From positions 10,272 through 74,271 of the IMG/VR virus record IMGVR_UViG_3300044212_000014: a DNA stretch of 64,000 bases, one strand, 5' to 3'. The notes under the pieces were generated by a model, which was given only the letters and a program-made list of their open reading frames with translations, did no database searches and was not told the DNA's origin. How positions within the stretch are numbered: position 1 is the stretch's first letter; each line of letters opens with the position of its first letter. Position numbers and translations under genes: made by a program. Source of the DNA: a virus (taxonomy: Duplodnaviria > Caudoviricetes). Shown piece by piece: positions 6,108 to 59,700 of the stretch.

Positions 6108-6338
6108 ATGGATACAAGACAAAGACGGAGAAGATACCCAAAGGGAGATTCCTTTCATAAAGGACTAACGCACGAGGTTAGAAAACAGCACATTCACTAC
6201 ATGACGGATGACCAGTATTTAAAAATAACAAAATGCCAAGACAAGGGTTGCCCAATATTCTCTGGTTTTAGGTATTGCGACGCAGAAAGATATTTAAAAC
6301 GGTATTACGTATATGGATGGAATGGAGAAAAAATATGA
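6108..6338 (+). CDS. Hypothetical protein
   Basis: AAGGAG RBS; overlaps the dnaE start. Confidence 0.6.
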   Translation: MDTRQRRRRYPKGDSFHKGLTHEVRKQHIHYMTDDQYLKITKCQDKGCPIFSGFRYCDAERYLKRYYVYGWNGEKI

Positions 6339-9202
6339 ATGAGTTTACCTGTAACTTTCACACACATACTGACTTTTCAATACACGATGGTTTTTCTAAA
6401 ATACCAGAGCTTGTTGGTTACGCCAAAGAACTTGGGTATACCTCATTAGCTATAACAGACCACGGGACAATGACAGGAGCAATATCTTTTTATGAAGAAT
6501 GTAAAAAACAGGGAATAAAACCCATTATTGGTTGCGAATGTTATTTCACAATGGACATAGATGCTAAAGGAGACACATACCATTTAATATTACTTGCAAA
6601 AGATTTACAAGGTTATCGTAATTTAATGCGTATTGATACATATTCTCACGAGCATTTTTATCGTAAGCCAAGAATTAGTTTCGATATCTTAGAAAAATAC
6701 CACGAAGGTATTGTTTGTACAACAGCTTGTATAGCTGGCCCGTTATCTAGCGATTTAAAAGATTACATTATGTCACGGTTAATATCTATATTTGGTGAAG
6801 ACTTATATATAGAAATACAACCTCACGACTTTGAAGAACAAAAAGTGTATAATTATACATTTATATCTCAATATCCCGAAGTTAAAAAGATAATCACACT
6901 CGATAGTCACTACGTTTGCAAAGATGATACCCAATATCATAGACTTTGGCTAGATTTAGATGACGATGCTGAGTATTATTCTTCTAGTGATTATTACCTT
7001 ATGGGTACAGATGAAATTGTAAGTAAGCTCTCTTACATGGAGTCATCCGATATACAAGATATGATTAAAAATACAAAAGAGTTGGAAGATAAGTTTAACT
7101 TAGAAATACCATTTGGTGAACAGCACTATCCTGTGTTCTGCGAAGACCCTGAAAGATATGTTAGAGATAAGATGAATGCTGGTTGGGTTCAAAAGGGAAT
7201 TTCCATGTTGCCAAATCACACTAAATACAGAGAGCAGGCAAATCATGAACTAGAAGTATTAAGGAAAGTCCATTATTTTAATTATTTCTGTATTGTTAAC
7301 GACATGTTGAAATTCTGCGAAGACAACAATATTCCAACTGGCATAGGCCGTGGTAGCGTAGGGGGGTGTCTAGTTGCTTATCTTATGGGCATTACAAAGG
7401 TAGACCCAATTAAATACAATTTGGTATTCGAACGGTTTACCAACCTAGAACGTGTAACTCCATGTGACATTGATACTGACGTAAGTCAAGGTAAACGACA
7501 AGAGCTTATTGAATATATCAAAAGTAAATATGGGGAAGCGTATCCCGTTAGAACCGTCGGAACCTGTGAAGACAAGGCCGCTGTTCAAGCCTCTGCTAGG
7601 TCACTTGATATTGACCCTACCATATATAAGAAAATGAGTAAGAATATAAACACGGTAGAAGATATGCCAGAAAAAACGGCAAGCGATAAACGATGGAAAC
7701 AGGTGGCAATGAAGTTCAGAGGACACGTACAGAACTATGGTAAACATCCATCTGCTATGTTGGTATCGCCTGAGGATATTTGTAAGTGGAGTCCAGTAGA
7801 AAAGCAGAAAGACGATTATGTTGTTTGTTATGACTTCCACCAGCTAGAAGACCAAGGGTTATTAAAACTCGATGTTCTTGGTCTAAAGACCCTTGACATA
7901 ATTGAAGACACAAAGAGACGGGCGGGAATAGATACTGATATTTCCCAATTTCCAGACTTAGATTCACCTACTTGTGCCATGTTAGCAAAAGGAGACACAG
8001 AAGGATGTTTCCAAATAGAAAGTAATGTAATGACTCCGATAGCAATGAGAATGAACGTTAGGGGAATGGAAGACTTGGCAACCGTCGTCGCTCTTGGTCG
8101 CCCCGGCCCTTTAGATTCTGGAATGGTAGAAACATTTTTAAAACGCCGGAATAAACAACTTCCTACCACCTACGACATTCCCGACCTAGAACCGTTACTT
8201 AAAGACACTGAGGGAGTTATTATATATCAGGAACAGATTATGAAGATTGTTCAGGTAATATGTGGATATTCCTTAGGGGAAGCAGATAACCTTCGTCGTA
8301 TTATAGGGCGTAAGGTAGTAGATGAAATGAACCCCGTTGTCGAGGATATGATTCGTAGGGGTATAGAAAAGGGACATACAAGAGAACAGATGGTAAAACT
8401 AACTGATGATATAAAAACATTCGCGCTTTATGGATTTAACCTATCCCATTCCTTAGCTTACGGAAAAACGGCGTGGGTTACATCATACCTTAAATGTCAC
8501 TACCCAGCGGCATTCATGGCCTCATTGTTAGATTACAACTGTAAAGATAAACCGAAGTTAGCCACTTATATTGTCTACTGCCAGAACCATAATATACGTA
8601 TCCTTCCACCTAGGGTAAACCATCACAACTGCTACTCAGATTATGACGAAGATGGCCCTTATATCGTTCTTGGACTAAACTGTATCGCTGGCGTTGGGAA
8701 CGTATCTATTGATTCCTCAGATAGTGACTTTGAGGCATTTTTGGAAAAGAACATAAACGTTAATAAGAAAGCTCTCGGTAGTATGGTTAGGGCTGGTGTA
8801 TTTAGTGGCAATAGAGATATGATGTTACAGTATATAGATTGGATGAAAGACAAGAGAAAGTCTAAGGGAGAGTTTACATATGTACCAACACGATATGATG
8901 ATGACATGGAACAATCCAAAGTAATTGGAGTTAGTTTTGGTGATGTCCTTAGTAAATATGACTTGTCTATAGTAGACGGGATAAGTACGTTTGGAGTCGA
9001 AGTATTAGAAGTTAAGGGAAGAAAGACAAAGACCGGAAAGCCAATGGCATTCGTTAAAGTAAAAGACTCCAAGTTCGTTAAGGACTTTGTTATCTTTAGC
9101 GCAGATTATAAATACATAAAGACACACAAGGTTTATATCATGAGAGTTCGTAATAATCGCATCTTTGAATTTGTTGAAGCTATGCCACTTGACAAAACGT
9201 AA
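6335..9202 (+). CDS. dnaE: DNA polymerase III alpha subunit (family C)
   Basis: PHP motif HTHTDFSIHDG and AITDHG; GRGSVGG, RVTPCDIDTD, LLKLDVLGL, IYQEQIM, YGFNLSHS motifs. Confidence 0.95.
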   Translation: MNEFTCNFHTHTDFSIHDGFSKIPELVGYAKELGYTSLAITDHGTMTGAISFYEECKKQGIKPIIGCECYFTMDIDAKGDTYHLILLAKDLQGYRNLMRIDTYSHEHFYRKPRISFDILEKYHEGIVCTTACIAGPLSSDLKDYIMSRLISIFGEDLYIEIQPHDFEEQKVYNYTFISQYPEVKKIITLDSHYVCKDDTQYHRLWLDLDDDAEYYSSSDYYLMGTDEIVSKLSYMESSDIQDMIKNTKELEDKFNLEIPFGEQHYPVFCEDPERYVRDKMNAGWVQKGISMLPNHTKYREQANHELEVLRKVHYFNYFCIVNDMLKFCEDNNIPTGIGRGSVGGCLVAYLMGITKVDPIKYNLVFERFTNLERVTPCDIDTDVSQGKRQELIEYIKSKYGEAYPVRTVGTCEDKAAVQASARSLDIDPTIYKKMSKNINTVEDMPEKTASDKRWKQVAMKFRGHVQNYGKHPSAMLVSPEDICKWSPVEKQKDDYVVCYDFHQLEDQGLLKLDVLGLKTLDIIEDTKRRAGIDTDISQFPDLDSPTCAMLAKGDTEGCFQIESNVMTPIAMRMNVRGMEDLATVVALGRPGPLDSGMVETFLKRRNKQLPTTYDIPDLEPLLKDTEGVIIYQEQIMKIVQVICGYSLGEADNLRRIIGRKVVDEMNPVVEDMIRRGIEKGHTREQMVKLTDDIKTFALYGFNLSHSLAYGKTAWVTSYLKCHYPAAFMASLLDYNCKDKPKLATYIVYCQNHNIRILPPRVNHHNCYSDYDEDGPYIVLGLNCIAGVGNVSIDSSDSDFEAFLEKNINVNKKALGSMVRAGVFSGNRDMMLQYIDWMKDKRKSKGEFTYVPTRYDDDMEQSKVIGVSFGDVLSKYDLSIVDGISTFGVEVLEVKGRKTKTGKPMAFVKVKDSKFVKDFVIFSADYKYIKTHKVYIMRVRNNRIFEFVEAMPLDKT

Positions 9203-9262: not shown

Positions 9263-10018
9263 ATGAGCATTTTTGATGAACTTAAAAAACCTTTCCCCCC
9301 TAGTGATGTCGAATGGAGATTGAGCAGTAAGTCGAAGGACAAAAAAAGAGGTCAGGTACTTGCGTATATCACAGCTCGTGGCGTACAAGAACGTCTCGAC
9401 GAGGTGGTTGGGCCGGAAAACTGGTCAATTTCATACCGTCCAGCAGACCTTGGTGTTATTACTCAGTCTACATATAATGGAGACAAGTCTGTACCAGTTA
9501 AGGGTTTCTTGGCAGAACTTACTGTATATGTAGGAGATAAGGTAATTACTCGCGTGGATGGCAGTAACTGTACGGACTTCGAGCCGTTTAAGGGTGGCTT
9601 GTCTGGCGCATTAAAAAGGGCCGCGTCTGCTCTCGGCATTGGTCGGTATCTGTATAAGCTTCCTCCGACTTGGGTTCCCATTGACAACTATGGTAATTTC
9701 AAGAACCCACAACTTCCTGAATGGGCGTTACCGGAGGGGTTCCAGTATCCTCACGAATACCATAGTGAAGAAGCAGAAACTCCTCATCAATATCACGGAA
9801 GTGAAGACCCAGCACCGTCGTTTGACGCTGAACAGCAAGGGCCTATTGGGCCAGTAACAATGCCTCGCGGTAAATTCACCGGAAAGCCAGTCGCTGAAAT
9901 TACAGACTACGGATATCTTGACTGGATTGTGAATAAGTCTAGCTTTGAAGCTGATATTAAAGAAGCGGCGGCGGCGGCATTAAAGAAACGAATGGACGAG
10001 CTTGAGTTCGCTGGTTAA
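9263..10018 (+). CDS. sak: Rad52/Rad22-family (Sak) single-strand annealing recombinase
   Basis: LKKPFPPSDVEWR, LAYITARGVQERLDEVVGPENW, ALKRAASALGIGRYLY motifs. Confidence 0.85.
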   Translation: MSIFDELKKPFPPSDVEWRLSSKSKDKKRGQVLAYITARGVQERLDEVVGPENWSISYRPADLGVITQSTYNGDKSVPVKGFLAELTVYVGDKVITRVDGSNCTDFEPFKGGLSGALKRAASALGIGRYLYKLPPTWVPIDNYGNFKNPQLPEWALPEGFQYPHEYHSEEAETPHQYHGSEDPAPSFDAEQQGPIGPVTMPRGKFTGKPVAEITDYGYLDWIVNKSSFEADIKEAAAAALKKRMDELEFAG

Positions 10019-17376: not shown

Positions 17377-17380
17377 TCCA

Positions 17381-18821: not shown

Positions 18822-18833
18822 GGAGAGAGTAAA

Positions 18834-20821: not shown

Positions 20822-20877
20822 AAAAGACTTGACAAAACGTTAAAAATGTGGTATAATGTATTCATGGAGGTAAGGAA

Positions 20878-21540
20878 ATGCCATATACAATACCTGAGTT
20901 CGAAAATTACATATTATATGATAACCTAGATGTTTTTAGCAAGACGTCTGGTAGGTTTTTAAGCGCAGAGGTGGTAACACTGTGCAACGGCAAAACTAGA
21001 AAGCATTTTACTAGGAACTCTCTTAAGAAATATATCCCCATAGATGATAAGTATATTAAAATCCCTGGTTTTAACGGGGAATATGGGATATCAAAAGATG
21101 GTGAGGTTTATAGCTTTAAAACATTTAGGGTATTAAAATCATACCCCAACAAATATCGTCGCGGATATGTATATATCATACTGAGCCTCAATGGGAAACC
21201 AAAAACTTGCAAGGTACATAGGTTAGTAGCATTAACATACATACCAAATCCAAGTGGTAAGGAGTGCGTTAACCATATTAATGGAAATGTACAGGATAAC
21301 AGTGTCGATAATTTGGAATGGTGTACAGTTAAAGAAAACAACCTTTGGAATGTTAGTAGAGGCGTTGCTAATGGTGGTAACCATAAAAAATGTTATCTAT
21401 ACACCAAGTCCGGAGAGTTTGTTGGTTCGTTTCGCTCTATTAGAAAGGCTAGCGAATACGTCAAGTCTATTGGGTGTAGCGGATATGATGATATTAGGAA
21501 ATTAAAATATAATAAATATTACACGTTGGAGGTGCGTTAA
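20878..21540 (+). CDS. NUMOD4/HNH homing endonuclease (copy 2)
   Basis: Identical protein to 13109. Confidence 0.88.
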   Translation: MPYTIPEFENYILYDNLDVFSKTSGRFLSAEVVTLCNGKTRKHFTRNSLKKYIPIDDKYIKIPGFNGEYGISKDGEVYSFKTFRVLKSYPNKYRRGYVYIILSLNGKPKTCKVHRLVALTYIPNPSGKECVNHINGNVQDNSVDNLEWCTVKENNLWNVSRGVANGGNHKKCYLYTKSGEFVGSFRSIRKASEYVKSIGCSGYDDIRKLKYNKYYTLEVR

Positions 21541-22425
21541 TTGCCACTAAGTAGCTATTTTTGTCCCGACGGCGGGAGAATCAAAATTGAAGATTGTTTA
21601 AAAGAATGTAGATTAAAAGGTAAGATGAACCCAATAACCGGAATGGACTATGTTACTTGCGGGAGGTGTTTATCTATACCGACATTAAGAGCCGTTTCCG
21701 AACAGAGAAGTTGGACTGGCAAACCATCCACTACTCAGTTGTTACGAGGAACGAGAGAGGCATATTTAACTCTTACGAGAGAATATGCAATCGACCCCAA
21801 AAGTATGATGTTTGCTCTTCACGGCACAAACACTCATGCGAGACTCGAAGACGGCATGTCAGAAGAGGACTTGGGGGAACAGCGGCTGGATGACGGAGTG
21901 TCCACTGGAGCATTTGACTACTACTCAGATGAAGACGGGGGAACGCTATTCGACTATAAGACGTACTCTTCATATGTTTGTGGAAAGTATATGGGAATAG
22001 GGAGCAGGAAGGAACTAATAGGCCATTACAAGAATGGTAAACCTAGATTTCAGTCAGTAAGAACTTATGGTAATGCAAAGCACGACCTAGACCTAGCCAT
22101 ACAGTTAAACGATTACCGGATGAAAATACAAAAGGTTCTTAAAAAGCCAGTAGCAAACATGGTTTGTGAGATGATTGTAAGAGACGGTGGCACGTATATG
22201 GCTAAGAATAGAGGGGTAGATGATACTGCATACCTCATTAAGGTTGGTAAAATAAGTGATATTTGGGTTGAGAGGTATATGAAACGAAAAGCAAACGATT
22301 TAATTTCTGCGCTAGAAACTGGGAGAATGCCGCCACCATGCAGACCACATGAATGCTGGCACGGTAGAAAATGCAGAGACTTCTGCCCAGTTAATATGTA
22401 TTGTGACGCATACAAAGGAGAATAA
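21541..22425 (+). CDS. Cas4-like PD-(D/E)XK exonuclease (copy 2)
   Basis: Identical protein to 13772. Confidence 0.65.
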   Translation: MPLSSYFCPDGGRIKIEDCLKECRLKGKMNPITGMDYVTCGRCLSIPTLRAVSEQRSWTGKPSTTQLLRGTREAYLTLTREYAIDPKSMMFALHGTNTHARLEDGMSEEDLGEQRLDDGVSTGAFDYYSDEDGGTLFDYKTYSSYVCGKYMGIGSRKELIGHYKNGKPRFQSVRTYGNAKHDLDLAIQLNDYRMKIQKVLKKPVANMVCEMIVRDGGTYMAKNRGVDDTAYLIKVGKISDIWVERYMKRKANDLISALETGRMPPPCRPHECWHGRKCRDFCPVNMYCDAYKGE

Positions 22426-22426
22426 C

Positions 22427-22693
22427 ATGGATAAAGACATCTTAGCAGAATTTGAGAAAGAATTAAAGTCTGGTATTAAAATTGGGATTAACATGAAAGA
22501 GAATAACGACAAGGTTGAGTGTGGCATTATCGGTGATAAAGAGTATTCTCCTCAGCTTGTACTAACCTTGTTGATCATCTCCATTGCTAATCTTATGCAG
22601 ATAGACCCAAGCGATCTGTTAGACGCGTGTGTTTCTGCTCGCAAGAAAGATGGTATTGACTTGTCAGACCAGTTCGAACATCTTATTAACTAA
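22427..22693 (+). CDS. Hypothetical protein (copy 2)
   Basis: Identical to 14658. Confidence 0.6.
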   Translation: MDKDILAEFEKELKSGIKIGINMKENNDKVECGIIGDKEYSPQLVLTLLIISIANLMQIDPSDLLDACVSARKKDGIDLSDQFEHLIN

Positions 22694-23355
22694 TGGATGA
22701 GTGCGAAGTAAGAAGTAATTGTAGGAAGAGTTATGATTGCGATTGGTGCGATTACTATAGCGAATATTCCCCAATAAACATTAATATTAAATGCAAAAGA
22801 CAGATAGAAAATACAAAAATTCGTAGAGAGCAGAGGAAAGTGAAAAGAATTTCCGATGCCTCTAAGAGGGGAAGGTCAAACAGAAGGAACGGACGTAAGG
22901 CAGAACGAGACGTTGAAAATCTATTAAACGAACTGGGGTTAGATGCCTCAAGAACTCCTATGTCCGGCGCACTTAAAACAGCAAACCTCATACCTCAATT
23001 AAAAGACCATGTGTCCGGTGATATAAGAATAAAGTATTTAGACAAAGAGCTTATAGTTGAATGCAAAAGGAATATTCATTCGGATAGTTGGTATAAACTT
23101 ACAGAAAAAGGTTTAATACATATAGATGGGTTTTGCTATGGTCTTACAAAAGAGTTATTCGAATATTTGGTAAACGGACTACTAAGTGGGGAATGTATTG
23201 ATATCCCAGACAACAAATTTAAGATGTTGCATAAATATTTCGACCAAGATAACTCAGATATCGTCGTTGTTACTAGGCCATGGCACGACCCCCTGTTCTT
23301 CTTAAAAGAAAAAACATTTGAATTATTCGGAGGTAATATAAATCATGATAAGTAG
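22693..23355 (+). CDS. Holliday-junction resolvase-like nuclease (copy 2)
   Basis: Identical to 14924. Confidence 0.65.
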   Translation: MDECEVRSNCRKSYDCDWCDYYSEYSPININIKCKRQIENTKIRREQRKVKRISDASKRGRSNRRNGRKAERDVENLLNELGLDASRTPMSGALKTANLIPQLKDHVSGDIRIKYLDKELIVECKRNIHSDSWYKLTEKGLIHIDGFCYGLTKELFEYLVNGLLSGECIDIPDNKFKMLHKYFDQDNSDIVVVTRPWHDPLFFLKEKTFELFGGNINHDK

Positions 23356-23593
23356 CGAAAATAGAATGTCGAGAATTGAACCTACGTCGCTTTATATCTC
23401 TAGCGTTAGCGAGAAAGACCAGCATGGAATTGACCGTTTAGTCGCAACTCGCATTATGGCTTTAAATGCAACGACTCCTAAGCCTATCGTGGTAAAGACG
23501 TTCGCTATCGGAGACTTTGACAACGGGGTAAAAATAGAAACTTCCGAACGTCTTTTGGAAGTAACTAAAGATGCCATGGAGGATATAGGATAA
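23345..23593 (+). CDS. Hypothetical protein (copy 2)
   Basis: Identical to 15576. Confidence 0.55.
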   Translation: MISSENRMSRIEPTSLYISSVSEKDQHGIDRLVATRIMALNATTPKPIVVKTFAIGDFDNGVKIETSERLLEVTKDAMEDIG

Positions 23594-24030
23594 TGCCTCC
23601 GGCATATGAAGAGTTGGTAAGCCAATTCGAAGAAATAAAGTATAGATACGAACAACTCACGGATACAGATGTGTTAGAGGCATTCTCTCTCATGAGAGAT
23701 TCCTCTTCACTACTGGCAAGTTACGACACGATGGTAGCGGAGTCATACAAACTAACGGCACTTACCGAAAGACAAGCTAGGGCGGTAGAGGCCAGAAAAA
23801 GTATAGAACTTTCTGTTAAACCGACGGAAGGCGCGAGAAGAGCAACCGCTGATGAAGAAGTCGTATCGGCGTGGAATAAATATATATCGGTAGCTACAAG
23901 TCAGAAATATATAGAAGCCAACGCAAAGTTCCTTAGTAGAGTATATTTCGATGCCAAGATGATAACTGAGAATTGTTATCGAAAGGAAAGGCCGGCAGTA
24001 GGAACAGACCGTATTGTTGGTAGAACGTAA
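23593..24030 (+). CDS. Hypothetical protein (copy 2)
   Basis: Identical to 15824. Confidence 0.6.
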   Translation: MPPAYEELVSQFEEIKYRYEQLTDTDVLEAFSLMRDSSSLLASYDTMVAESYKLTALTERQARAVEARKSIELSVKPTEGARRATADEEVVSAWNKYISVATSQKYIEANAKFLSRVYFDAKMITENCYRKERPAVGTDRIVGRT

Positions 24031-24047
24031 TCAGCCTAGGAGGTTTT

Positions 24048-24569
24048 ATGCCAAGAACAAGAAAAAATGAAACTTATTCTGTAGATGATTTAAAAGTAAC
24101 TAAATATGAACCATATACGCCAGAGGCCCCGAAGGTGAAGGTAAAGTTTATAAAAGAAAGACCCGACTCTAAGGCTCCTGAATATAAGACGGATGGCTCG
24201 TTTGCTTTTGACCTGTACTCCGATAGGGACTGTACTGTTGTTGGTAATAAACCTACACTAATTTCTTTGGGGGTAAAAGTTGAAATTCCATCTGGATATG
24301 GTATGTTAATTATTCCTAGGTCATCCATTGGGAGCAAAACTCCCCTTCGTCAGTCAAATTCAGTTGGCCTAATTGATAGTGATTACCGTGGTGTTGTTAT
24401 GGTAATGTATGAATCAAACAGAGATATTGCTGGTTCGACTATAGTTCGTAGAGGGGATAGAATAGCGCAGGGATTTCTAATCCCATATGTAAATGTTGAC
24501 TTTGTAGAAGCAGACGAATTAAGCGAGACAGAAAGGGGTACTGGTGGATTTGGTTCCACTGGTAGATAG
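24048..24569 (+). CDS. dut: Trimeric dUTPase (copy 2)
   Basis: Identical protein to 16279. Confidence 0.95.
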   Translation: MPRTRKNETYSVDDLKVTKYEPYTPEAPKVKVKFIKERPDSKAPEYKTDGSFAFDLYSDRDCTVVGNKPTLISLGVKVEIPSGYGMLIIPRSSIGSKTPLRQSNSVGLIDSDYRGVVMVMYESNRDIAGSTIVRRGDRIAQGFLIPYVNVDFVEADELSETERGTGGFGSTGR

Positions 24570-24578
24570 GAGAACGAT

Positions 24579-24785
24579 ATGTGTGTAACTAGGATGCAAC
24601 TATTTTTTATGGTAGCAGGATTCATTGCTGGTCTTGTGTCCCTATCTGGTGTTATATACCACCTTATTATGACTTTCGAATGGAATGATATTGTTGCATG
24701 GGGCGGTATGTTATCGTTTATATTGTTTGAGGTATCAGACCTATTTAAACCAGAATTTGAAGATAATGACATGGAGGATAAATAA
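24579..24785 (+). CDS. Small two-TM membrane protein
   Basis: GGAG RBS; intact version of the frameshifted copy 1 gene. Confidence 0.6.
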   Translation: MCVTRMQLFFMVAGFIAGLVSLSGVIYHLIMTFEWNDIVAWGGMLSFILFEVSDLFKPEFEDNDMEDK

Positions 24786-24786
24786 T

Positions 24787-25143
24787 ATGAAAGTACCAGA
24801 ACATTACGTAGAATATTTCGAAAATGAAGAAAAAGGTGTCGTTGTTTGTAAATTAAAAAACTGCTTTACCGTTAGGAAGTGCGCTATTGACTATCTCAAC
24901 AAAATGGGTGATTGGGCAATTAAAGACGCTTTCGCGGCATACTCCGCTAGCGTAGATGAAAATAAACAGCAGAAAATCGGTATTGCTCATTTAGCCGACG
25001 GTGATATCTGGGACTCTCGCACTGGTCGTAAAGTGGCAAAGACGAAACTTGAAACGCACGTAAGTAATTATTTCTTGAAAGTATTAGATAGTATTACCAA
25101 CGATGCTTTACAGGTGGTTACTTACTTTTTAACGGAGGTGTAA
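24787..25143 (+). CDS. Hypothetical phage protein
   Basis: GGAGG RBS; intact version of the frameshifted copy 1 gene. Confidence 0.6.
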   Translation: MKVPEHYVEYFENEEKGVVVCKLKNCFTVRKCAIDYLNKMGDWAIKDAFAAYSASVDENKQQKIGIAHLADGDIWDSRTGRKVAKTKLETHVSNYFLKVLDSITNDALQVVTYFLTEV

Positions 25144-25147
25144 TCCA

Positions 25148-25441
25148 TTGAACGTTATCGAATATGACAACTCAGGTAAGAAGAAAAAAGCGACGAAAGA
25201 AACGAACGAATGGTTTGACGAACATTACGGTGGAACAAGTGATGAAATTCAACCGATAGAATTTATGCAATCTCAATTTTCAGAAGAAGCGTTTGTTGGC
25301 GCTATCTTGTTTAATATAGTTAAGTACTCTTCACGGCTCGGGAAAAAGGATTCCCCTTTAGAGGAAGCGCGGAAGATACTACGATATTCCCAATGGTTAG
25401 TTAAGGTACTAGAGGGAGAAACAATAGACCCAAGGGTTTAA
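25148..25441 (+). CDS. DUF3310-like protein (copy 2)
   Basis: Near identical to 17381. Confidence 0.75.
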   Translation: MNVIEYDNSGKKKKATKETNEWFDEHYGGTSDEIQPIEFMQSQFSEEAFVGAILFNIVKYSSRLGKKDSPLEEARKILRYSQWLVKVLEGETIDPRV

Positions 25442-25472
25442 ATATAAAACTATGTTTTATTGAAGGGGGTTT

Positions 25473-25787
25473 TTGATGCCGAAGTTATTGGCAATCCTCT
25501 CACTATTATTCGTTTTCGCAATGCCCGTTTATGGGATGCAGGTTAGATGTACTGCATATACAACTACTGAGAACACGGGCATTATGGCTAACGGTATGGA
25601 AGCGCAGGTCGGATATGTGGCTTGTGACTTCCTTCCCTTAGGCACTGTCATATACATAGACGGTGCTAGGTACATAGTAGGAGATAGGATAGGAGACGGA
25701 ACAAACAACCATATTGACATTGTTTTTAACAGTTACGACGAAGCAATAAACTTTGGTGTGCAGTATTTAGATATGGAGGTAGCATAA
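25473..25787 (+). CDS. Secreted 3D-domain protein (copy 2)
   Basis: Identical protein to 17706. Confidence 0.8.
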   Translation: MMPKLLAILSLLFVFAMPVYGMQVRCTAYTTTENTGIMANGMEAQVGYVACDFLPLGTVIYIDGARYIVGDRIGDGTNNHIDIVFNSYDEAINFGVQYLDMEVA

Positions 25788-26588
25788 TTGAATGAGACGG
25801 ACATGATAAGTAAAGCGTACCTACCTCACGTAATGAGGACTAGGGTTATTGGAGATAAAGGTGCGCTGGCTGTCTTATCTGATATACATGAGGGTGCAAA
25901 CAACAGGAAATATTTACAAGATGCCGTGTCGTTCTTGTTATCGCTAGGGCCTCGATGTAAAGTTGTTATCGGTGGAGATAGTACCAATACCATAACACGG
26001 AATAGCAAGGGAATACCTATCGAAGAATGGGCTAGCGGGGATAAACAAATATTTTCCCTCGTTGATGATATAAAACCACTATATGATTCAGGACAGATTA
26101 TAGGGATTACATCTGGTAATCACACGAGGAGAGCATATGACAGCACGTTTATAACGATAGAAGCCATGATCGCAAGCATACTGGGCGATAGGTCATTATA
26201 TAAGGGTTCTATGGGTATTGTATATTTCAACGTAAATAAAAATTGTTACGTCCACCATATTTTACATAAACATAGGGCTACGGAAGGTGCATATGATTTC
26301 TTCTCGGCAGACGCTAACTGGTTCGAGCATAAGCATAAGCCAATGGTTCGCCCTAAGATAATGATTGACCATAACAAATATGAAAAGGTTCCCGTGGCTA
26401 AGAGATGTTGGGATATCTACCAGTCTTCATTTCAGGATTATCCTGATTATGCTAAGGTAGCAGGGTATAGGCCCAGTGTTCCGGGATTTTATATTTGCGA
26501 AATGAGCGGAGATATTCATAATAGATCGCTTACCCCATATATGGATGGAACGTACCACGCACTTATTAATGGCGGTTATGTGTTTTAA
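25788..26588 (+). CDS. Metallophosphoesterase (copy 2)
   Basis: Identical protein to 18021. Confidence 0.75.
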   Translation: MNETDMISKAYLPHVMRTRVIGDKGALAVLSDIHEGANNRKYLQDAVSFLLSLGPRCKVVIGGDSTNTITRNSKGIPIEEWASGDKQIFSLVDDIKPLYDSGQIIGITSGNHTRRAYDSTFITIEAMIASILGDRSLYKGSMGIVYFNVNKNCYVHHILHKHRATEGAYDFFSADANWFEHKHKPMVRPKIMIDHNKYEKVPVAKRCWDIYQSSFQDYPDYAKVAGYRPSVPGFYICEMSGDIHNRSLTPYMDGTYHALINGGYVF

Positions 26589-26600
26589 GGAGAGAGTAAA

Positions 26601-27113
26601 ATGCCGAATTATCTTGATAGCCTAATAGATTCTTACGTAGATGACACGGAGCAAGACACGTATCAATTACAAAAATATATCGTGGGCCTAATCGACAAAT
26701 ATTCTTCCGATAAGATAGATGGTAAAGAGGCGTGTCGTAGTATATCAAATATTACACGTCGAGACGAGTGGATACAGGACGTAAATAGTAATAGATTGAA
26801 AGAGAAAATAAAACAGAAATACTCGTTTGTCCGGTATGCAAAATCGCCTGAGGATATAATTATAGAGTGGGAAACCGCGGAAAAGATATTACATTTTCTT
26901 ACATGGTTACATTCTATAATTAATCACACTGATTGGTATATACTTACTCAGATGTCATTTAGGAAGATACCAGCTACTATGTTAGCAAGAGAAATGAACA
27001 TACCAAGGGACACGATATATAAAAGACTTTCCGTTGTTAGGAATGTGGCTAAAGAGTTTATGCCATATTATGCGGAACAGTTCGGAGATATTAAAGAATA
27101 TTTGGAGGACTAG
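26601..27113 (+). CDS. Sigma-region-4-like HTH regulator (copy 2)
   Basis: Differs from 18834 at EQ/DK. Confidence 0.55.
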   Translation: MPNYLDSLIDSYVDDTEQDTYQLQKYIVGLIDKYSSDKIDGKEACRSISNITRRDEWIQDVNSNRLKEKIKQKYSFVRYAKSPEDIIIEWETAEKILHFLTWLHSIINHTDWYILTQMSFRKIPATMLAREMNIPRDTIYKRLSVVRNVAKEFMPYYAEQFGDIKEYLED

Positions 27114-27235
27114 ACATGGACACGGTTAAAGCAGAAAAAGATTCTATAAAAGTATATGTATCAATACCACCGTTAAGTTATGTATAATAATATAACTAAA
27201 ATAAAGGCAACAGTTCGTTAAAATGGAGGGAAAAT

Positions 27236-28267
27236 TTGAAAATATATAACGGCGATTGTATGGAATGCTTACTAATGATACCAGATAATAGCGTAGATGC
27301 TGTAGTTACTGATCCCCCTTATGAATTAGGATTCATGGGCAAAAAGTGGGACAAGACAGGGATAGCTAATAATGTAGACATGTGGCACGAAGTATTACGT
27401 GTTTTAAAACCGGGCGGTCACTTGCTGGCATTTGGGGGTACCCGTACATATCATCGTATGGCATGTGCCATTGAGGATGCAGGATTTGAAATCCGTGACC
27501 AACTACAGTGGATTTATGGCAGTGGATTTACAAAGTCCATGGATATTAGCAAGGCGATTTATAAAAAAGCTGGGATATGGAGAGGAAAAGCGGGCAACGT
27601 AATCTCTAAAAATGGTTCTATGAGCGCACCAAATTATGAACGGACACCAAAAGTGGAGCCTATTACTGAACTTGCTAAACAATGGAACGGATTTGGCACA
27701 GCTCTTAAGCCTGCAAACGAGCCTATCTGTCTTGCTCGTAAGCCGCTGACTAAAAAAAGTGTTGTAGATAATATACTGAGATACGGTACCGGAGGCATTA
27801 ATATTGACGGGTGTCGAATACCCACTACGCAACTGCACGTTCAAAAAGCAAAAGGTTCTAATGGGACTCAGGGGATATACGGCGACTTTAATACCATGGG
27901 TGTATATGCCCCCAACCCACACGGTAGATTCCCGTCGAACGTTATACTCGACGAAAACGCATCACAACTTTTAGATGCGCAGACAGGAACTCTTAAAAGC
28001 CGATTTTTTTACTGTGCAAAGGCTTCACGGAAGGAACGTGACCAAGGACTTGACGACCACAACAATCATCCGACAGTAAAGCCTGTAGACCTTATGCGAT
28101 ATTTAGTTAGCCTTGTTACAAAAGAAGGGCAAGTCGTTCTTGATCCGTTTATGGGTAGTGGGACAACTGGGGTTGCTTGTGTGTTAAATCATAGAGATTT
28201 TATAGGGATAGATAAAGACAAGCATTATTGTGATATTGCCGAAAGGCGCATCGCCTATTCTATATAG
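27236..28267 (+). CDS. N6A/N4C DNA methyltransferase (beta class)
   Basis: DPPY near N-terminus, HPTVKP, LDPFMGSGTTG near C-terminus. Confidence 0.92.
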   Translation: MKIYNGDCMECLLMIPDNSVDAVVTDPPYELGFMGKKWDKTGIANNVDMWHEVLRVLKPGGHLLAFGGTRTYHRMACAIEDAGFEIRDQLQWIYGSGFTKSMDISKAIYKKAGIWRGKAGNVISKNGSMSAPNYERTPKVEPITELAKQWNGFGTALKPANEPICLARKPLTKKSVVDNILRYGTGGINIDGCRIPTTQLHVQKAKGSNGTQGIYGDFNTMGVYAPNPHGRFPSNVILDENASQLLDAQTGTLKSRFFYCAKASRKERDQGLDDHNNHPTVKPVDLMRYLVSLVTKEGQVVLDPFMGSGTTGVACVLNHRDFIGIDKDKHYCDIAERRIAYSI

Positions 28268-40115: not shown

Positions 40116-40475
40116 TTACTTACCTTCTTTCCAACTAATTGATATTTTCGTCCGCCCACCGTAGTCTATTGGGGATTTACTAATGACATACCACATCTGC
40201 CGAAAATACCAACATATTTTTTCTATCTCCTCGTCAAAAAGATCATCTAAGTATACCTCTGTTATGTAATTACCTTCGTCTACCGCTTCCATTATTTTTA
40301 CGCTGATCATATCTATACTGCGGTAATTCTTCCTACCGTGAAAGAACGGTATGAGATATACTATCTGATTGCTATATTTTTTTTCTATGTATTTATTTCT
40401 TTTGCTAATCTCGGATATCCTTTTTTTATTATTATTCGCTATCGCTAGATTCCTAGCTTCTTCCGCATTTATCAT
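40116..40475 (-). CDS. Hypothetical protein carrying a 16-aa portal-derived antisense insertion
   Basis: MINAEEAR start with GGAGGG RBS; paralog of 40472. Confidence 0.6.
   Translation of the reverse strand: MINAEEARNLAIANNNKKRISEISKRNKYIEKKYSNQIVYLIPFFHGRKNYRSIDMISVKIMEAVDEGNYITEVYLDDLFDEEIEKICWYFRQMWYVISKSPIDYGGRTKISISWKEGK
40317..40364 (+). repeat. 48-bp exact direct copy of portal gene segment 49463-49510
   Basis: ACTGCGGTAATTCTTCCTACCGTGAAAGAACGGTATGAGATATACTAT at both sites. Confidence 0.95.
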
Positions 40476-40765
40476 TTCGCTCCCTCCCAACCGATTTTTA
40501 AAATATATGTATGTTCCCTCTCTGATAGTACATATGCCATATATCCTTTATCTTGTAAGTAATCAACAATATCATATACGGTTTTTCTATTAAAATCCTC
40601 AATAGTAAAATTAGTTTCGCTTTTCCCGTCCTCTGCCGTCTTAAATATTTTATCATCTATCTCAGACAATATAAGTGAAAATGCTTTTTCAAGTAGATAA
40701 ATGCGCATTTTCTTTGTATCTATTGCAACTTGAGTCTGTATCCATACTTCTCCCGCTGTTCTCAT
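40472..40765 (-). CDS. Hypothetical protein, paralog of 40116
   Basis: Shared I-x2-KI-x3-A-x2-G...GY...I-x-W pattern. Confidence 0.6.
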   Translation of the reverse strand: MRTAGEVWIQTQVAIDTKKMRIYLLEKAFSLILSEIDDKIFKTAEDGKSETNFTIEDFNRKTVYDIVDYLQDKGYMAYVLSEREHTYILKIGWEGAK

Positions 40766-41665: not shown

Positions 41666-42421
41666 CTATTTATCTAATCTAGCCTTTTTGCCAAATAATC
41701 TAGGCAATGCCACACAAAACACACCATAATCAAGGCTAAAAGTATCTTTTGGATTGCAAATTGCATATGAGTTAGCCCTATGCCCATTTTTAACCTTTGT
41801 TAGTCGTATTTTTTTACCTTCTACGTGTACCAATATATTATCCGGCAACTGATAGTTATGTTTAAGTTTTAATACTGATTGGGACGAAAACGAGCCTATA
41901 TTATCAAGATCAACCACCTGATTGCCGATAATATTTCTAACTACCGACATCCTACCAATAAACGCTTTGTTGAGAACTTCTAATAACACTACCTTATCAC
42001 CTTTGTGTAATTCTTCTCCCTGAACGTCAGTAACCTTTTTGATAACCTCATATTTTTTAAACACGTTTTCCGGCATTTTTGCTGTCCTACTTGAGTTTAT
42101 GTCCTTTATGCACATAACAGCTTCGGAAGTTACGTCATAACGGGGGGATAGCATTAGGTCTTCTTCATCAAAAAACCAGCAATCATGATATTCGCTAGGC
42201 TTACCCTTATATCTTTTATGGGTTTTAAGCCCCGATCCAGTATGCAATATAAGGCCTTCATTTTCAATAAATACCAAAGGATATTTAACAAGATATACAT
42301 TATCCTCATGTTCGGTATAATATCCTTGTATTACCCCGTGGCGACCCCTCAGCATCATATCGGCGCCTTTAAGTCCCCCTCTGTTTTTCGCAAATACGCG
42401 ATCTCCTAGTTTAAATTTCAT
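41666..42421 (-). CDS. Hypothetical protein
   Basis: 251-aa ORF with GAGG RBS. Confidence 0.6.
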   Translation of the reverse strand: MKFKLGDRVFAKNRGGLKGADMMLRGRHGVIQGYYTEHEDNVYLVKYPLVFIENEGLILHTGSGLKTHKRYKGKPSEYHDCWFFDEEDLMLSPRYDVTSEAVMCIKDINSSRTAKMPENVFKKYEVIKKVTDVQGEELHKGDKVVLLEVLNKAFIGRMSVVRNIIGNQVVDLDNIGSFSSQSVLKLKHNYQLPDNILVHVEGKKIRLTKVKNGHRANSYAICNPKDTFSLDYGVFCVALPRLFGKKARLDK

Positions 42422-42433
42422 TTTTATTTCCTC

Positions 42434-42613
42434 CTATTCAATTAAGAACTCATCATAACCGCATGTTATGTGGCATTTGCTTCTTTTCTTTATATTCCAT
42501 TGTATCGCGTCAATATCTTGACTATCTAAAGTATAACAGTTTTCGAGTAGCTCGTCAATACAATGGTTTAAGCTTCCTTGTGTAATTACCCTCCCGTTTA
42601 TTAATAGCTTCAT
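42434..42613 (-). CDS. Hypothetical protein directly downstream of hammerhead A
   Basis: GGGAGG SD 9 nt before ATG. Confidence 0.55.
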   Translation of the reverse strand: MKLLINGRVITQGSLNHCIDELLENCYTLDSQDIDAIQWNIKKRSKCHITCGYDEFLIE

Positions 42614-48197: not shown

Positions 48198-48271
48198 TGC
48201 GGGGTATTTTAATGGCAGAATACTAGGCTCATTCCCTAGTGACGAGTGTTCGACTCGCTCTCCCGCAACCA
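48198..48271 (+). tRNA. trnM: tRNA-Met(CAT), initiator-like
   Basis: TGCGGGG/TCCCGCA-A-CCA acceptor like fMet; CTAGG-ctCATtc-CCTAG. Confidence 0.85.
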
Positions 48272-48272
48272 T

Positions 48273-48347
48273 GCTTGTGTGGCGCAATGCTAGCGCAACT
48301 GACTTGTAATCAGTAGGTTGAAAGTTGGAATCTTTCCACAAGCTCCA
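48273..48347 (+). tRNA. trnT: tRNA-Thr(TGT)
   Basis: ACTGA-ctTGTaa-TCAGT; atypical T-loop TTGGAAT and D-loop lacking GG. Confidence 0.8.
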
Positions 48348-48350
48348 TAC

Positions 48351-48425
48351 ACCTTGGTAGTTCAATGGTAGAGCGCCTGACTGTTAATCAGGAAGTTGTA
48401 GGTTCGAATCCTACCCTTGGTGCCA
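48351..48425 (+). tRNA. trnN: tRNA-Asn(GTT)
   Basis: CCTGA-ctGTTaa-TCAGG; two U-U mismatches in acceptor stem. Confidence 0.85.
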
Positions 48426-48428
48426 CAT

Positions 48429-48502
48429 AGGGGAGTCGTTCAATGGCAGGACATGAGACTTTGACTCTCAGAATCTTAGTTCAATTCTAAGTTCCCCTTC
48501 CA
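48429..48502 (+). tRNA. trnQ: tRNA-Gln(TTG)
   Basis: TGAGA-ctTTGac-TCTCA; encoded CCA. Confidence 0.88.
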
Positions 48503-48745
48503 AAATGGAGGAATAAAAGTCGGCATTCCTCAGCTATAATGAGTGATGTAGCACGGTTATGGTACTGCACTACAGATGGCTAAACCTACAGTGATGTCAT
48601 CATGGGCGCCGCCCCTAATAGTCGAGGGATAAAAGCAGACTAACGATACGTACATCGGGACTTATATTGTATGTCTGATCTATAGACGGACTTGATGTGG
48701 TCTTGATTTCCTTTTGGAGGGTTAGCGGGTTAAATGCCTCCCCCA
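48503..48745 (+). ncRNA. Candidate structured RNA within tRNA array, ending in a CCA microhelix
   Basis: 243-nt insert among tRNAs otherwise 1-4 nt apart; several hairpins; GGAGG/CCTCC-C-CCA end. Confidence 0.45.
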
Positions 48746-48746
48746 T

Positions 48747-48833
48747 GGATGATTGGCAGAATGGCTATTGCAACTGTCTTGAAAACAGTCAAACCGAAAG
48801 GTTTTGTGGGTTCGAATCCTACATCATCCTCCA
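48747..48833 (+). tRNA. trnS: tRNA-Ser(TGA)
   Basis: ACTGT-ctTGAaa-ACAGT; long variable arm. Confidence 0.9.
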
Positions 48834-48837
48834 ACAT

Positions 48838-48923
48838 GTTAGGGTGGGCGAGTGATTAATGCCAGCAGTCTGTAAAACTGCCCTCTTCGGAGTTCGTAAG
48901 TTTGAATCTTACCCCTAGCACCA
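48838..48923 (+). tRNA. trnY: tRNA-Tyr(GTA)
   Basis: GCAGT-ctGTAaa-ACTGC; long variable arm; T-loop TTTGAAT. Confidence 0.88.
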
Positions 48924-48926
48924 CAT

Positions 48927-49003
48927 ACTAGACTGGTGCAACTGGCAGACACAATGGTCTTAGAAGCCATAAAGTAAGGGTTCGAATCCCTTGTCTAGTA
49001 CCA
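48927..49003 (+). tRNA. trnL: tRNA-Leu(TAG), short variable loop
   Basis: ATGGT-ctTAGaa-GCCAT, 5-nt variable loop AAAGT. Confidence 0.9.
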
Positions 49004-49043: not shown

Positions 49044-49072
49044 ATATGCAAAAAAAGGATGGAGTTGTTATT

Positions 49073-49348
49073 ATGAAGTGTCATGAAGACCCAGACTTTT
49101 CAGATCACAAGTTATATGGCCCGTTTTTAGACGTTGGCTTTAATTTTATTGTAAATGTAGATCGGGTTACAAGTATAATACCGATGCTCGGATTAAAAGC
49201 AAAGCGTCTATACCTAGAAAAAAGAGACGCTGGCCTCATTATTGATGCTACGCGGGGACGTAAAAAGCAATGCCTTATCGTACTGGATACAGGCGAGGTA
49301 GTAGCATGTGCGTTTAGACCGAAAACAATTATTGACAGACAGTTCTAA
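49073..49348 (+). CDS. remA: RemA / DUF370 family DNA-binding regulator
   Basis: VGFNFIV..DRV.SI....KR....RDAGLIIDATRGRK...IVLDTG.V....PKTI aligns by eye with B. subtilis RemA. Confidence 0.8.
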   Translation: MKCHEDPDFSDHKLYGPFLDVGFNFIVNVDRVTSIIPMLGLKAKRLYLEKRDAGLIIDATRGRKKQCLIVLDTGEVVACAFRPKTIIDRQF

Positions 49349-49360: not shown

Positions 49361-51523
49361 TTGAGTTTTATCCAAAATAACAGTAATCCTTCGCTCGACC
49401 AAATAGACACGAGCCTTGTTACTGCGGTACAAAGAGACATACAAGACGCAGAGGATTACCAAACTGCGGTAATTCTTCCTACCGTGAAAGAACGGTATGA
49501 GATATACTATGCGGATAAAGACTATTACGCTAGGAAATTCCCTAAACTGTCTAAAGTATCCTCTTTGGTATCCACTGACGTAACAGATACAATCGAATGG
49601 GCGTTACCATCTCTTACTAAGGTATTTACGCAAGGTGACGAGATTGTTACGGTACAAGGCGTAACAGAAGAAGATGACCGTAACGCTGATGTCATGCAGG
49701 AATTGCTGAAATACCAGCTACAGCGCCAGAATAGGTTCTTCCCAATCCTATATAACTGGATGAAAGATGCTTTGATTACTGGTATGGGCATTATAAAATG
49801 CTACTGGGAACGTAAAGAAGACACACAGTTGATGGAACAGTCCATGAACTTACGCGCTTTCCAGCAGTTATCTCAGTCTGGGGTACAAATCCAGTCCGTT
49901 GATGGCCCTGACCAGTTCGGTATATTCAGAGTACAGTATTATTCCCCATATTACGTAAAAAACGCTCCAATGATAGAGAATATACTGGTATCGGAGTTGC
50001 TTTATTCATCAGATGCCAAGACTCTCGATGAAGCTAATTTCGTAGCTCACAAGAAGAAAGTTACTATGAGTTACCTTCGCGAACGAGAACAGCAGGGAAT
50101 TTACGCCAATATAGACCAAATAACTCCCAAGCCCATTAATTCATTCGTATATGACGACGAAGTTGAAATGGTTATTGGTGATAACTACCAAGGCATGAGC
50201 CGTGAGGCTGATGACGCGAGAGCAGAGGTAGTAATTTACGAATGCTATACAAAGCTCGACTGGAATAACGATGGTGTACTGGAAGACCTGATTGTAACGA
50301 TTTGTGATGACGTTATCCTTCGGGTAGAGCCGAATTACATGGGTAGACATCCATTCTTCTCTATCTCACCAACGAAAGACCCTCACCGCATCTGGGTTAA
50401 GCGTTCTTACGCCGAACTAATTGGGGAGCTACAGGACTTAAAAGTAGCCCTGACTCGTCAGATTGTGCAGAATATATCGCTTACAAACGACCCTAAAATG
50501 ATATTATCGGAAGATTCTATCAATATTAAGGATTATGTAGACGGTAGGGCAGTTATTCGGAAGAAAGCAAACCAGCCAATGAATGACGTGGCTATGGCTA
50601 TGCCAGTAAACCAATTAAGCCCGTATACATATCAATTCCTTGAATATATCGAAGGCCAGAAGGAAAATCGTACTGGTATTACTCGGTATAACCAAGGTTT
50701 AGACGCGAATACCTTGAATAAAACCGCTACGGGCATCTCCGCTATCTTAGGACAAAGCTCACAACGGTTAGAGTTAATAGCGAGAATGTTTGCTGAAACT
50801 GGATTCTACGAACTATTCCGCTTTTTGATTGGTTTAAATCAGCGGTTTATGGATCAGGGAACAGTAATTCGGCTAACAAATAAAGAATTAAAGATAAGTC
50901 CTGATGATTTACAGGGTAACTTTGATTTGATTGTAAATTCTGGTATCTCAATGGCTAGCAAACAGGAAACACAGCTTACACTACAGACAATGATGACTGC
51001 GCTAATGCAGGCAAGAGCATCTGGGCTTCCTATTTGTACGCCAGAAAACATATACAACTTGTTTAAGAAATGGATTGAATCTGCTGGCCTTAGAAATTAT
51101 GCGGACTATATCACGGAACCTGCCCTAGTAGGACAGAGGATGATGATAGAAGAACAGTTAAAGATGCAGGTATTGGCATCACTACCGCCTCAAGCAACGC
51201 AAATGTATATGGAAACTGGAGTGTTACCACCGCAGGTATTACTACAGTTGCCGCCTGAATTACAAGCGCTGTTCGGTAGCGGTTATCCGACAGACGGAGG
51301 AATGAATAGTGGACAAAACGGAGCTGGAATACAAAACGGAGTTGGAGTCCCAACAACGCCTAATGCAGGCAATGGAGCTGTCCGACAAAGCAGAAATAAC
51401 GCTGGAAGTGGCGGACAAATGGTTGGAGGACTATCAAGGGTGGATAACAAACAGCCTCAAAACGTGCCAAGACAATCAGGTAATGGGCCTTCGCAACCTT
51501 CTAGTGGTGTCGGAGGCTTTTAA
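49361..51523 (+). CDS. Portal protein
   Basis: 720 aa after TerL; DTIEWALPSL, ALITGMGIIKCYW, TGITRYNQG, KTATGI; low-complexity tail. Confidence 0.88.
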   Translation: MSFIQNNSNPSLDQIDTSLVTAVQRDIQDAEDYQTAVILPTVKERYEIYYADKDYYARKFPKLSKVSSLVSTDVTDTIEWALPSLTKVFTQGDEIVTVQGVTEEDDRNADVMQELLKYQLQRQNRFFPILYNWMKDALITGMGIIKCYWERKEDTQLMEQSMNLRAFQQLSQSGVQIQSVDGPDQFGIFRVQYYSPYYVKNAPMIENILVSELLYSSDAKTLDEANFVAHKKKVTMSYLREREQQGIYANIDQITPKPINSFVYDDEVEMVIGDNYQGMSREADDARAEVVIYECYTKLDWNNDGVLEDLIVTICDDVILRVEPNYMGRHPFFSISPTKDPHRIWVKRSYAELIGELQDLKVALTRQIVQNISLTNDPKMILSEDSINIKDYVDGRAVIRKKANQPMNDVAMAMPVNQLSPYTYQFLEYIEGQKENRTGITRYNQGLDANTLNKTATGISAILGQSSQRLELIARMFAETGFYELFRFLIGLNQRFMDQGTVIRLTNKELKISPDDLQGNFDLIVNSGISMASKQETQLTLQTMMTALMQARASGLPICTPENIYNLFKKWIESAGLRNYADYITEPALVGQRMMIEEQLKMQVLASLPPQATQMYMETGVLPPQVLLQLPPELQALFGSGYPTDGGMNSGQNGAGIQNGVGVPTTPNAGNGAVRQSRNNAGSGGQMVGGLSRVDNKQPQNVPRQSGNGPSQPSSGVGGF

Positions 51524-56795: not shown

Positions 56796-59700
56796 ATGGC
56801 TGACGACAGTAGCTCAATTATAACCACTTTATCGGACTATTGGAATAAATTACCAGCATCCCTAAATGGCTCTGGGACAAACTTTATATACCTTTTAAAA
56901 AATATGCTTAGTGACCTAACGTCAGAGTTGAATGAAAATCTCCAAAATATTAGTGAGATATATAATACCATAACGGATAACTCAGACAAGATAGATACTC
57001 AGCTAAAAAACTGCAAGGTAGTAGAAAAGAGAATCGGCACAGCCATTACCCTTACCTTATCTTGGGATTCATCTGATATAGAAAATTATGACGGTGCAGA
57101 TATATATATAAAAAGAGCAGAGGGGGATTCATCTACAGCTATAGATTGGTCAACGGTAGATACCTTAGCATCTGTTACTACTACGAAGACAAACTCATAC
57201 GTTTTAAGTAGTGTGAGCGCGGGATATGTATATCACTTAACGTTTTTGGGTAGGAATACATATGGAGGCGTTTCAGAAGAGGATTCTGCTCCCACATTAA
57301 CATACGTTGTAAGCGCGTTAAATAACGTCCCAGACGCGCCAGTTAATTTAACAGTGCAATTTAATAGATATGGCGTTTTATGGAAGTGGACTCAGCCAGT
57401 TGACCTAGACTATGCCTATGCAGAATTAAGAGAAAACGAAAATGCTGGGGAAGCAAGTGGATTGCTAGAAATAACACAAGACACCACCTCAACCATGCTC
57501 CCGTCATCTCGTGAAGGCGTGGCATATTTGTTCAATAAGGGCTATGGGGATAAATATTCAGACCCAGCGACGGTAGCGTATTCTAAACCAATCCCGACAG
57601 CACCACTGACAGTTACGATAACGAAGACATTCCAAGGACTTACAATTAAATGTTCTGATATTCCAGAAGATTGTGTTGGGGCAGTATTCTCTATTAACGG
57701 ATTACAGTTTAAATCTCAGAATAACGAATACACATACTTTGCTACGTCTGGTAGCTTTACTGTAAAAGTGTGCTACTACGATATTTTTGGTAATGGCGAT
57801 TGGTCTTTAGAACAATCTGTATCCATTATAGAATATATAGACCCTGATTGGCTAGCAGATGACTCTTTAACGTTGGAAAAGATGGATTCTGTTATCAAAG
57901 ATGCGGTAAAAGACGCTCAAGATGCAATACCAAGGCTGGATGGCTTAGATGGTTCTATCACAAGTATAAATACAGCTATATCCGATATAAATACAGATGT
58001 GACTGGGTTACAGTCAGATGTGTCTGGGCTAACAACGACAGCCAATGGGCTAACGTCTGATTTATCTGACCTTACAACAGAGGTAACTGGCGTTAAACAG
58101 GACGTGTCTGGACTAACATCTACCGTAAATACGCATGATCAAGATATTTCGCAGTTAAAACAAACAGATACCCAGATACAGACCACAGTAGCCTCAAATA
58201 AAACGGCACAAGATGCCGTGAATACTTCGGTAGCCAGCCAAATCACTCAGAATGCCGATTCTATTACGACGGTTGTAGCCAACTTAAATAAGGACGCTAG
58301 TGATAGCCCTTATGAATCTATATCACAGATAAAGCAAACGGCAGATGGGATATCTTCTATTGTGTCCGCAAACAAAACAGCTCAGGATTCCATAAACTTT
58401 CAGGTACAACAACAGCTAGACAAAGCAATATCTACTTGGTTTTATACAGGAGTGCCTACGCTAACGAATGCCCCTGCTAAAGACTGGACAGACGACGATA
58501 CGAAGAACACCCACATTGGCGATTTGTACTACGATACCAACACTGGTCATGGATATAGATTCTTATTGTCAGGCTCAACGTTTTCTTGGGCTATTATTAC
58601 AGATACGGATGTAACCGCGGCCCTTGCCGCGGCATCTAAAGCTCAAGATACAGCGGATGGGAAGCGCAGAGTGTTTACCTCCACGCCAGTACCCCCATAT
58701 GACGTGGGAGATTTATGGACTCAAGGGCCAACTGGGGAACTTATGCGGTGCAAAACAGCTAAAGTTACGGGGCAGTCGTATGTGGCATCTGATTGGGATA
58801 AGGCTAGTAAATATACTGATGACACATCTCTTACCACGTTTATAAATGGTGTGTATGCTACAGATAAACAGACAATAACATCAGAGATCACTCAGAATGC
58901 CGATTCTATTACGACGGTTGTAGCCAACTTAAATAAGGACGCTAGTGATAGCCCTTATGAATCTATATCACAGATAAAGCAAACGGCAGATGGGATATCT
59001 TCTATTGTGTCCGCAAACAAAACAGCTCAGGATTCCATAAACTATCAGGTACAACAACAGCTAGACAAAGCAATATCTACTTGGTTTTATACAGGAGTGC
59101 CTACGCTAACGAATGCCCCTGCTCAAGACTGGACAGACGACGATACGAAGAACACCCACATTGGCGATTTGTACTACGATACCAACACTGGTCATGGATA
59201 TAGATTCTTATTGTCAGGCTCAACGTTTTCTTGGGCTATTATTACAGATACGGATGTAACCGCGGCCCTTGCCGCGGCATCTAAAGCTCAAGATACAGCG
59301 GATGGGAAGCGCAGAGTGTTTACCTCCACGCCAGTACCCCCATATGACGTGGGAGATTTATGGACTCAAGGGCCAACTGGGGAACTTATGCGGTGCAAAA
59401 CAGCTAAAGTTACGGGGCAGTCGTATGTGGCATCTGATTGGGATAAGGCTAGTAAATATACTGATGACACATCTCTTACCACGTTTATAAATGGTGTGTA
59501 TGCTACAGATAAACAGACAATAACATCAGAGATCACTCAGAATGCCGATTCTATTACGACGGTTGTAGCCAACTTAAATAAGGACGCTAGTGATAGCCCT
59601 TATGAATCTATATCACAGATAAAGCAAACGGCAGATGGGATATCTTCTATTGTGTCCGCAAACAAAACAGCTCAGGATTCCATAAACTATCAGGTACAAC

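Follow-up and report, generated by a model that had tools for sequence, protein, structure and literature searches.

The window analyzed in this study was a 64,000-nt stretch of DNA, bases 10272-74271 of a 74,271-nt IMG/VR virus record. A small gene in a minus-strand block of the window encodes an orphan protein and is translationally coupled to the upstream ORF (40472-40765) through an ATGA stop/start overlap. The gene contains 48 nt that are identical, at 48 of 48 positions, to a segment of the portal gene (40317-40364 and 49463-49510, both on the plus strand and hence in direct orientation). This exact identity had been reported in a sequence-only reading of the window and was borne out. 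The same reading had described the minus-strand insert as an in-frame addition, and this also held: the 16 added codons keep the codon register in both genes and contain no stop codon. The features of the locus are listed in Table 1.

Table 1. Features of the window that bear on the 48-nt insert.
Feature	Coordinates	Strand	Basis
Phage DNA polymerase gene, adjoining the Rad52-family gene	6275..9202	+	phrog_405 E 1.1e-256
Rad52-family single-strand annealing protein gene	9263..10018	+	PF04098 E 1.5e-14, above cut-off; phrog_1097 E 1.7e-42
Sigma-70-type promoters of the minus-strand block, consensus or near	45641, 45206, 45040, 44230, 42834, 40988, 39247	-	Promoter scan
Recipient orphan gene, 119 aa (103 aa without the insert)	40116..40475	-	ORF; ATGA overlap
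Hypervariable patch, codons 33-43 of the empty allele, spanning the insertion point	40299..40377	-	Allele comparison
CTAT (ATAG on the minus strand), repeated as the final 4 nt of the insert (40361-40364)	40313..40316		4-nt junctional microhomology
Insert, 48 nt, 16 in-frame codons IVYLIPFFHGRKNYRS, between Q37 and I54	40317..40364	-	Exact identity to 49463-49510
Portal gene, SU10-type, 720 aa	49361..51523	+	PF23899 E 8e-147; phrog_1216 E 2.5e-107
Donor segment, portal codons 35-50 (TAVILPTVKERYEIYY)	49463..49510	+	Begins at a codon boundary

The portal gene has a TTG start with AGGAGG 7 nt upstream, and the donor segment lies 102 nt downstream of this start. A RemA-like protein (PF04025, E 1.3e-16) is encoded directly upstream of the portal gene, at 49046-49348. 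Rfam detected eight tRNA genes, an 84-nt tmRNA-like gene and an EGFOA RNA at window positions 48198-49000 and 5415-5868; seven of the eight tRNA genes form an array between a promoter at 47839 and the portal operon.

The origin of the shared segment was investigated with 42 related portal genes from IMG/VR, which have 56-80% amino-acid identity to the portal of the window. The motif TAVILPTVKERYEIYY was kept in 42 of 42, and its DNA had drifted synonymously, with 26-39 of the 48 nt identical. Since the motif is conserved across all of these portals, the portal copy is the native one, and copying proceeded from the portal gene into the minus-strand gene. The donor was retained: the portal gene is intact and keeps its full length. 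A look-up of the exact portal protein in other assemblies found none on record. Among the 42 related loci, the 48-mer matched solely the portal gene, antisense to the recipient reading, and the insert was absent. These loci (tblastn, blastn) and five complete relatives yielded no homologue of the recipient gene.

An exhaustive search for maximal exact repeats was performed over the whole genome, with a 7.77-kb tandem duplication and a 645-nt tandem array excluded from the ranking. The 48-nt match was the sole dispersed repeat of such size. The next-longest exact repeats were 21 nt (between tRNA-like genes) and then 17 nt, and the longest repeat in shuffled versions of the 74,271-nt genome (n=20) was 15-17 nt. 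Because the 48-nt repeat is unique and well above the shuffle maximum, it was counted in favor of a templated insertion. A self-BLAST at word size 11, proposed as a check in the sequence-only reading, gave no second event, and the remaining matches were tRNAs and promoters. The search for the same copying process in the five complete relatives gave only a 28-nt inverted repeat in one of them.

This relative (G001, locus L050) is a related 65-kb phage, and its exact 28-nt inverted repeat occupies positions 4720-4747 and 13298-13325, 8.5 kb apart. One occurrence lies between genes, next to a terminator-like hairpin, and the second directly adjoins the end of a small ORF. Rather than a copy-paste scar, the repeat is probably a shared regulatory motif. 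The 645-nt unit excluded from the ranking is present three times at 99-100% identity, with two diverged partial copies, at window positions 58242-60752 in the structural gene block. It probably encodes a domain repeated within a tail fibre or decoration protein.

A mobile element (MITE, IS fragment or homing element) was considered as the source of the repeat and rejected. The segment has two copies only, without inverted ends and without an associated enzyme. The 4-nt CTAT repeat at the junction continues the identity with the donor and is not a donor-unrelated target-site duplication.

Alleles of the recipient gene were found in public assemblies. Two contigs, L046 (ENA ERZ25038517, 773 nt) and L047 (ENA ERZ27249489, 2,771 nt), each encode a 103-aa protein with an empty site. 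The two proteins are 98% and 94% identical to the window protein over shared positions and lack exactly the 16 residues. At the DNA level, L046 differs from the window by three substitutions and one 48-nt gap, and L047 by 16 + 8 mismatches, with identities to the window of 99.6% and about 97-99%, respectively. The empty site in L046 reads CATATCTAT joined directly to CTGATTGC, as predicted by deleting the 48 nt. The sequence-only reading had proposed that removal of the insert restores NQ followed by IDMISVK, and the two natural 103-aa alleles have this arrangement (YSNQ followed by IDMISVK). It had also invoked a paralog pattern, which was not recovered: the neighboring ORF matched either allele at BLASTP E >= 1 only, and paralogy is undetectable. 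The paralog argument is unnecessary, since orthologous empty-site alleles exist.

The exact 119-aa protein with the identical insert was found in a further contig, L045 (JGI 3300045597 Ga0455799_001515, 10,382 nt). L045 differs from the window by 44 mismatches over 9.4 kb and 11 in an 824-nt block (55 in total; 99.5% identity). It agrees with L047, against the window, at 41990, 42310 and 42425-42434, whereas at five other sites it shares the base of the window and L047 differs. This mosaic of shared sites indicates that carrier and non-carrier lineages have recombined, so that the insert has persisted and is not newly in circulation. More alleles were sought by pattern scans of the viral, metagenome and genome collections, with zero matches, which is weak evidence.

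A second structural polymorphism lies 2 kb from the insert. The gene at 41666-42435 encodes 251 aa in the window and 307 aa in L045 (795-1718) and L047 (327-1250). The 307-aa forms have an additional 56-aa N-terminal domain (MGKFKVGNIV...), which resembles the start of the window protein (MKFKLGDRVF...), and the indel is flanked by a repeated RBS-plus-start sequence.

The possibility that chimeric reads or a graph mis-join in the assembly or library placed portal sequence in the gene was also weighed. The record is a metagenome assembly, and it contains a suspicious 7.77-kb tandem duplication. However, two junctions with 0-4 nt overlap are impossible in a k-mer graph unless they are present in the reads, and the insert comprises exactly 16 codons, its empty site being clean. 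Because the same insert occurs in a second, non-identical contig with 55 differences, an assembly chimera is very unlikely indeed. As for the duplication, it spans window positions 11908-27450 with a period of 7767-7769, is exact over 4,458 nt and is 93-97% identical elsewhere. The genome minus the duplication is about 66.5 kb, the size of the relatives (64.6-68.6 kb). The duplication is either a real recent event or two strain variants joined by the assembler.

The junctions of the insert were compared with the donor and with the ancestral allele. The 48-nt gap can be aligned on either side of CTAT, which gives a clean 4-nt microhomology at one junction. The sequence-only reading had described microhomology at both ends, ATAG at entry and CAG at exit. 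The ATAG match stands, and the CAG match does not, being offset from the flank by one T and imperfect at best. In the ancestral allele, only 9 of 17 nt of the left flank and 2 of 13 nt of the right flank are identical to the portal gene, and a longer conversion tract is accordingly not supported. A hairpin in the 48-mer that might stall the polymerase was rejected: its DNA folding energy was -4.7 kcal/mol (z -1.65, with 13 of 200 shuffles equal or better), and its pairing bases are not conserved in relatives. A restriction break at a GATC 5-9 nt from the junction was likewise rejected, the site being intact in carriers and off the junction. Among 4-nt palindromes, GATC is avoided most strongly across the genome (72 observed vs 209 expected under a Markov model), and the 6-nt palindromes ACTAGT, ATGCAT, CTGCAG and TCTAGA are absent from the genome. 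This avoidance suggests restriction pressure from the host.

The recipient protein matched no Pfam or PHROG family. Among 5.8 billion proteins, three alleles only were found, the 119-aa form and the two of 103 aa, and no true relative was present among 1.84 billion representatives. The only additional remote match, P0006, was rejected as a 58-aa tandem-repeat protein with a score inflated by repetition. A scan of the IMG/VR proteins with the 119-aa protein gave no relative, and blastn of the phage GenBank collection with the recipient region and with the portal gene gave no match.

The three-dimensional structures of the two forms were predicted. The empty allele, even without an alignment, was predicted with a pLDDT of 87.8 and a pTM of 0.73, as a helix at 4-33, a helix at 35-50 and then a strand-helix-strand-strand arrangement. 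The insertion point between Q37 and I38 is inside the second, confidently predicted helix. The carrier protein was predicted with a pLDDT of 56, with the minimum at residues 29-52. The models point to damage of the N-terminal helices by the insert, with the C-terminal part staying in frame. Foldseek against the PDB gave nothing at E <= 0.001 for the recipient protein, and in BFVD its fold resembles many uncharacterized small phage proteins.

The substitutions among the four known alleles were clustered. Nine of 10 were in the 11-codon patch around the insertion point, and one was in the other 92 codons; six of the nine patch substitutions alter the amino acid, and synonymous changes are also present. 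Two substitutions are derived in the carriers, one 17 nt (40300) and one 13 nt (40377) from the junctions, and both equal the portal base in register. Replicative repair is known to involve error-prone synthesis beside template-switch junctions. However, L047, which lacks the insert, carries a separate substitution cluster at the same patch. With four alleles only, the patch may mark a local hot spot, come from a short recombination tract or be under diversifying selection.

The last of these leads to an adaptive explanation, in which codons 33-43 form a surface patch under diversifying selection, for example in escape from host defence, and the portal origin of the insert is irrelevant. The clustered and mostly amino-acid-changing substitutions are consistent with such selection, the insert leaves the reading frame and the C-terminal alpha/beta part intact, and the carriers persisted and recombined. 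However, the synonymous changes in the patch fit a recombination tract or a mutational hot spot equally well, and the drop in pLDDT for an insert in a predicted helix is more like damage than tuning. The recipient protein also matched no family or PDB structure that would point to a function or a defence partner. An adaptive variant is therefore unlikely. There is similarly a slim chance of a combined explanation, in which the patch around Q37 and I38 would be a recurrent breakage and error-prone-repair hot spot or an arms-race epitope, and the insert would be an adaptive escape allele with a possible antisense side effect on the portal mRNA.

A regulatory device was the other functional explanation considered. 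The minus-strand mRNA would pair in trans with the portal mRNA, forming dsRNA open to RNase III and delaying the portal, or the insert would mask a CRISPR target. The 48 nt are perfectly complementary to the portal mRNA, with a computed duplex energy of -86 kcal/mol and a target 102 nt into the portal ORF. Both strands have consensus sigma-70-type promoters, and both RNAs are probably made by the host polymerase. However, the target is away from the portal ribosome-binding site, and a 12/12 promoter at 47839 lies ahead of the tRNA array and portal block, so that a separation of early and late expression is only presumed. The pairing is also not conserved: it is absent from L046 and L047, and in the 42 related loci the 48-mer is confined to the portal gene. 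The complementarity and its position, as given in the sequence-only reading, are correct; the regulatory role attached to them is not supported, the insert being absent from near-identical alleles and from relatives. A CRISPR decoy, suggested in the same reading, is unsupported for the same reason of absence from close alleles. No exact, spacer-like 22-24-nt match to the empty site or the core of the portal segment was found in genome_contigs, metagenome_contigs and viral_contigs, in narrow scans confined to exact cores. A regulatory device is thus quite improbable.

The insert is most likely a real, recent and lineage-specific templated insertion, produced by template switching or break-repair synthesis. 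An identical donor has been retained, the site is empty in relatives, and microhomology is present at one junction, which are features of such insertions. The proposal of the sequence-only reading that portal sequence had been copied into a gene of the minus-strand block is therefore upheld by the donor, the empty site and the microhomology at one junction. Its suggestion of a Sak-mediated event presupposes a Sak-type gene, and this premise holds as to gene presence only, in the form of the Rad52-family gene. The Rad52-family protein would be possible machinery for the event, and the adjoining polymerase may be the enzyme for the template switch.

During replication or break repair in the recipient gene, the end of a growing DNA strand would leave its template. 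It would then copy 48 nt of portal sequence, from a site 9.1 kb distant on that genome or on a sister genome, and return to the original template via the 4-nt match CTAT/ATAG. The donor would be untouched, and the product would by chance be in frame and stop-free. Since the region affected is the most variable one of an orphan protein that looks dispensable, the insert would be tolerated and would circulate as a polymorphism, with the 48-nt complementarity to the portal mRNA as a by-product. The insert is probably tolerated and not useful. The sequences establish the 48-nt identity, the microhomology, the empty site, the direction of copying and the second carrier. The neutrality of the insert is inferred, as is the enzymology of the event, both in the choice between a template switch and break-repair synthesis and in any part played by the polymerase and the Rad52-like protein.

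Several observations were counted against a templated insertion. Clean microhomology is present at a single junction. The insertion point coincides with clustered substitutions, which a purely random accident would not predict, and the matches to the portal base at 40300 and 40377 are unexplained. The in-frame reading in both registers could hint at selection, although chance and purifying filtering suffice. The second carrier may share a study with the window.

The templated insertion was compared with known systems. In Ripley-type templated mutations of phage T4 and quasipalindrome mutations of E. coli, the new sequence is set by a transient template switch of the polymerase. These events involve imperfect inverted or direct repeats that lie close by, and a few bases are usually altered. 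The insert resembles them in that its sequence was dictated by another stretch of the same genome. It differs from these events in that 48 nt came from 9.1 kb away, with the low flanking homology noted above. Lambda OOP and P22 sar are conserved, dedicated small antisense transcripts that overlap their target locus. They share with the present case an RNA complementary to a phage mRNA, whereas here the complementary copy acts, if at all, in trans, is inside a coding mRNA and is private to one lineage.

A further known model is MMBIR/FoSTeS-type template switching and the 'filler DNA' of synthesis-dependent end joining (PMC2621351). As in MMBIR, the insert is a short ectopic copy from the same genome with an intact donor, junction microhomology, nearby point changes and no transposition signatures. 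It departs from the model in having clean microhomology at one junction only. The MMBIR model concerns eukaryotic and bacterial chromosomes, whereas the present case is a natural polymorphism in an uncultivated phage with its own polymerase and Rad52-like protein.

The insert is best read as a templated copying scar of a known kind and by itself reveals no new mechanism or system. Such self-copies may be misread as regulatory repeats, which is a trap for annotators. The locus is a clean natural example. Donor, recipient and empty site, together with a second carrier and recombinants, are visible in public metagenomes, so that a phage genome can be seen gaining sequence through ectopic templated copying.
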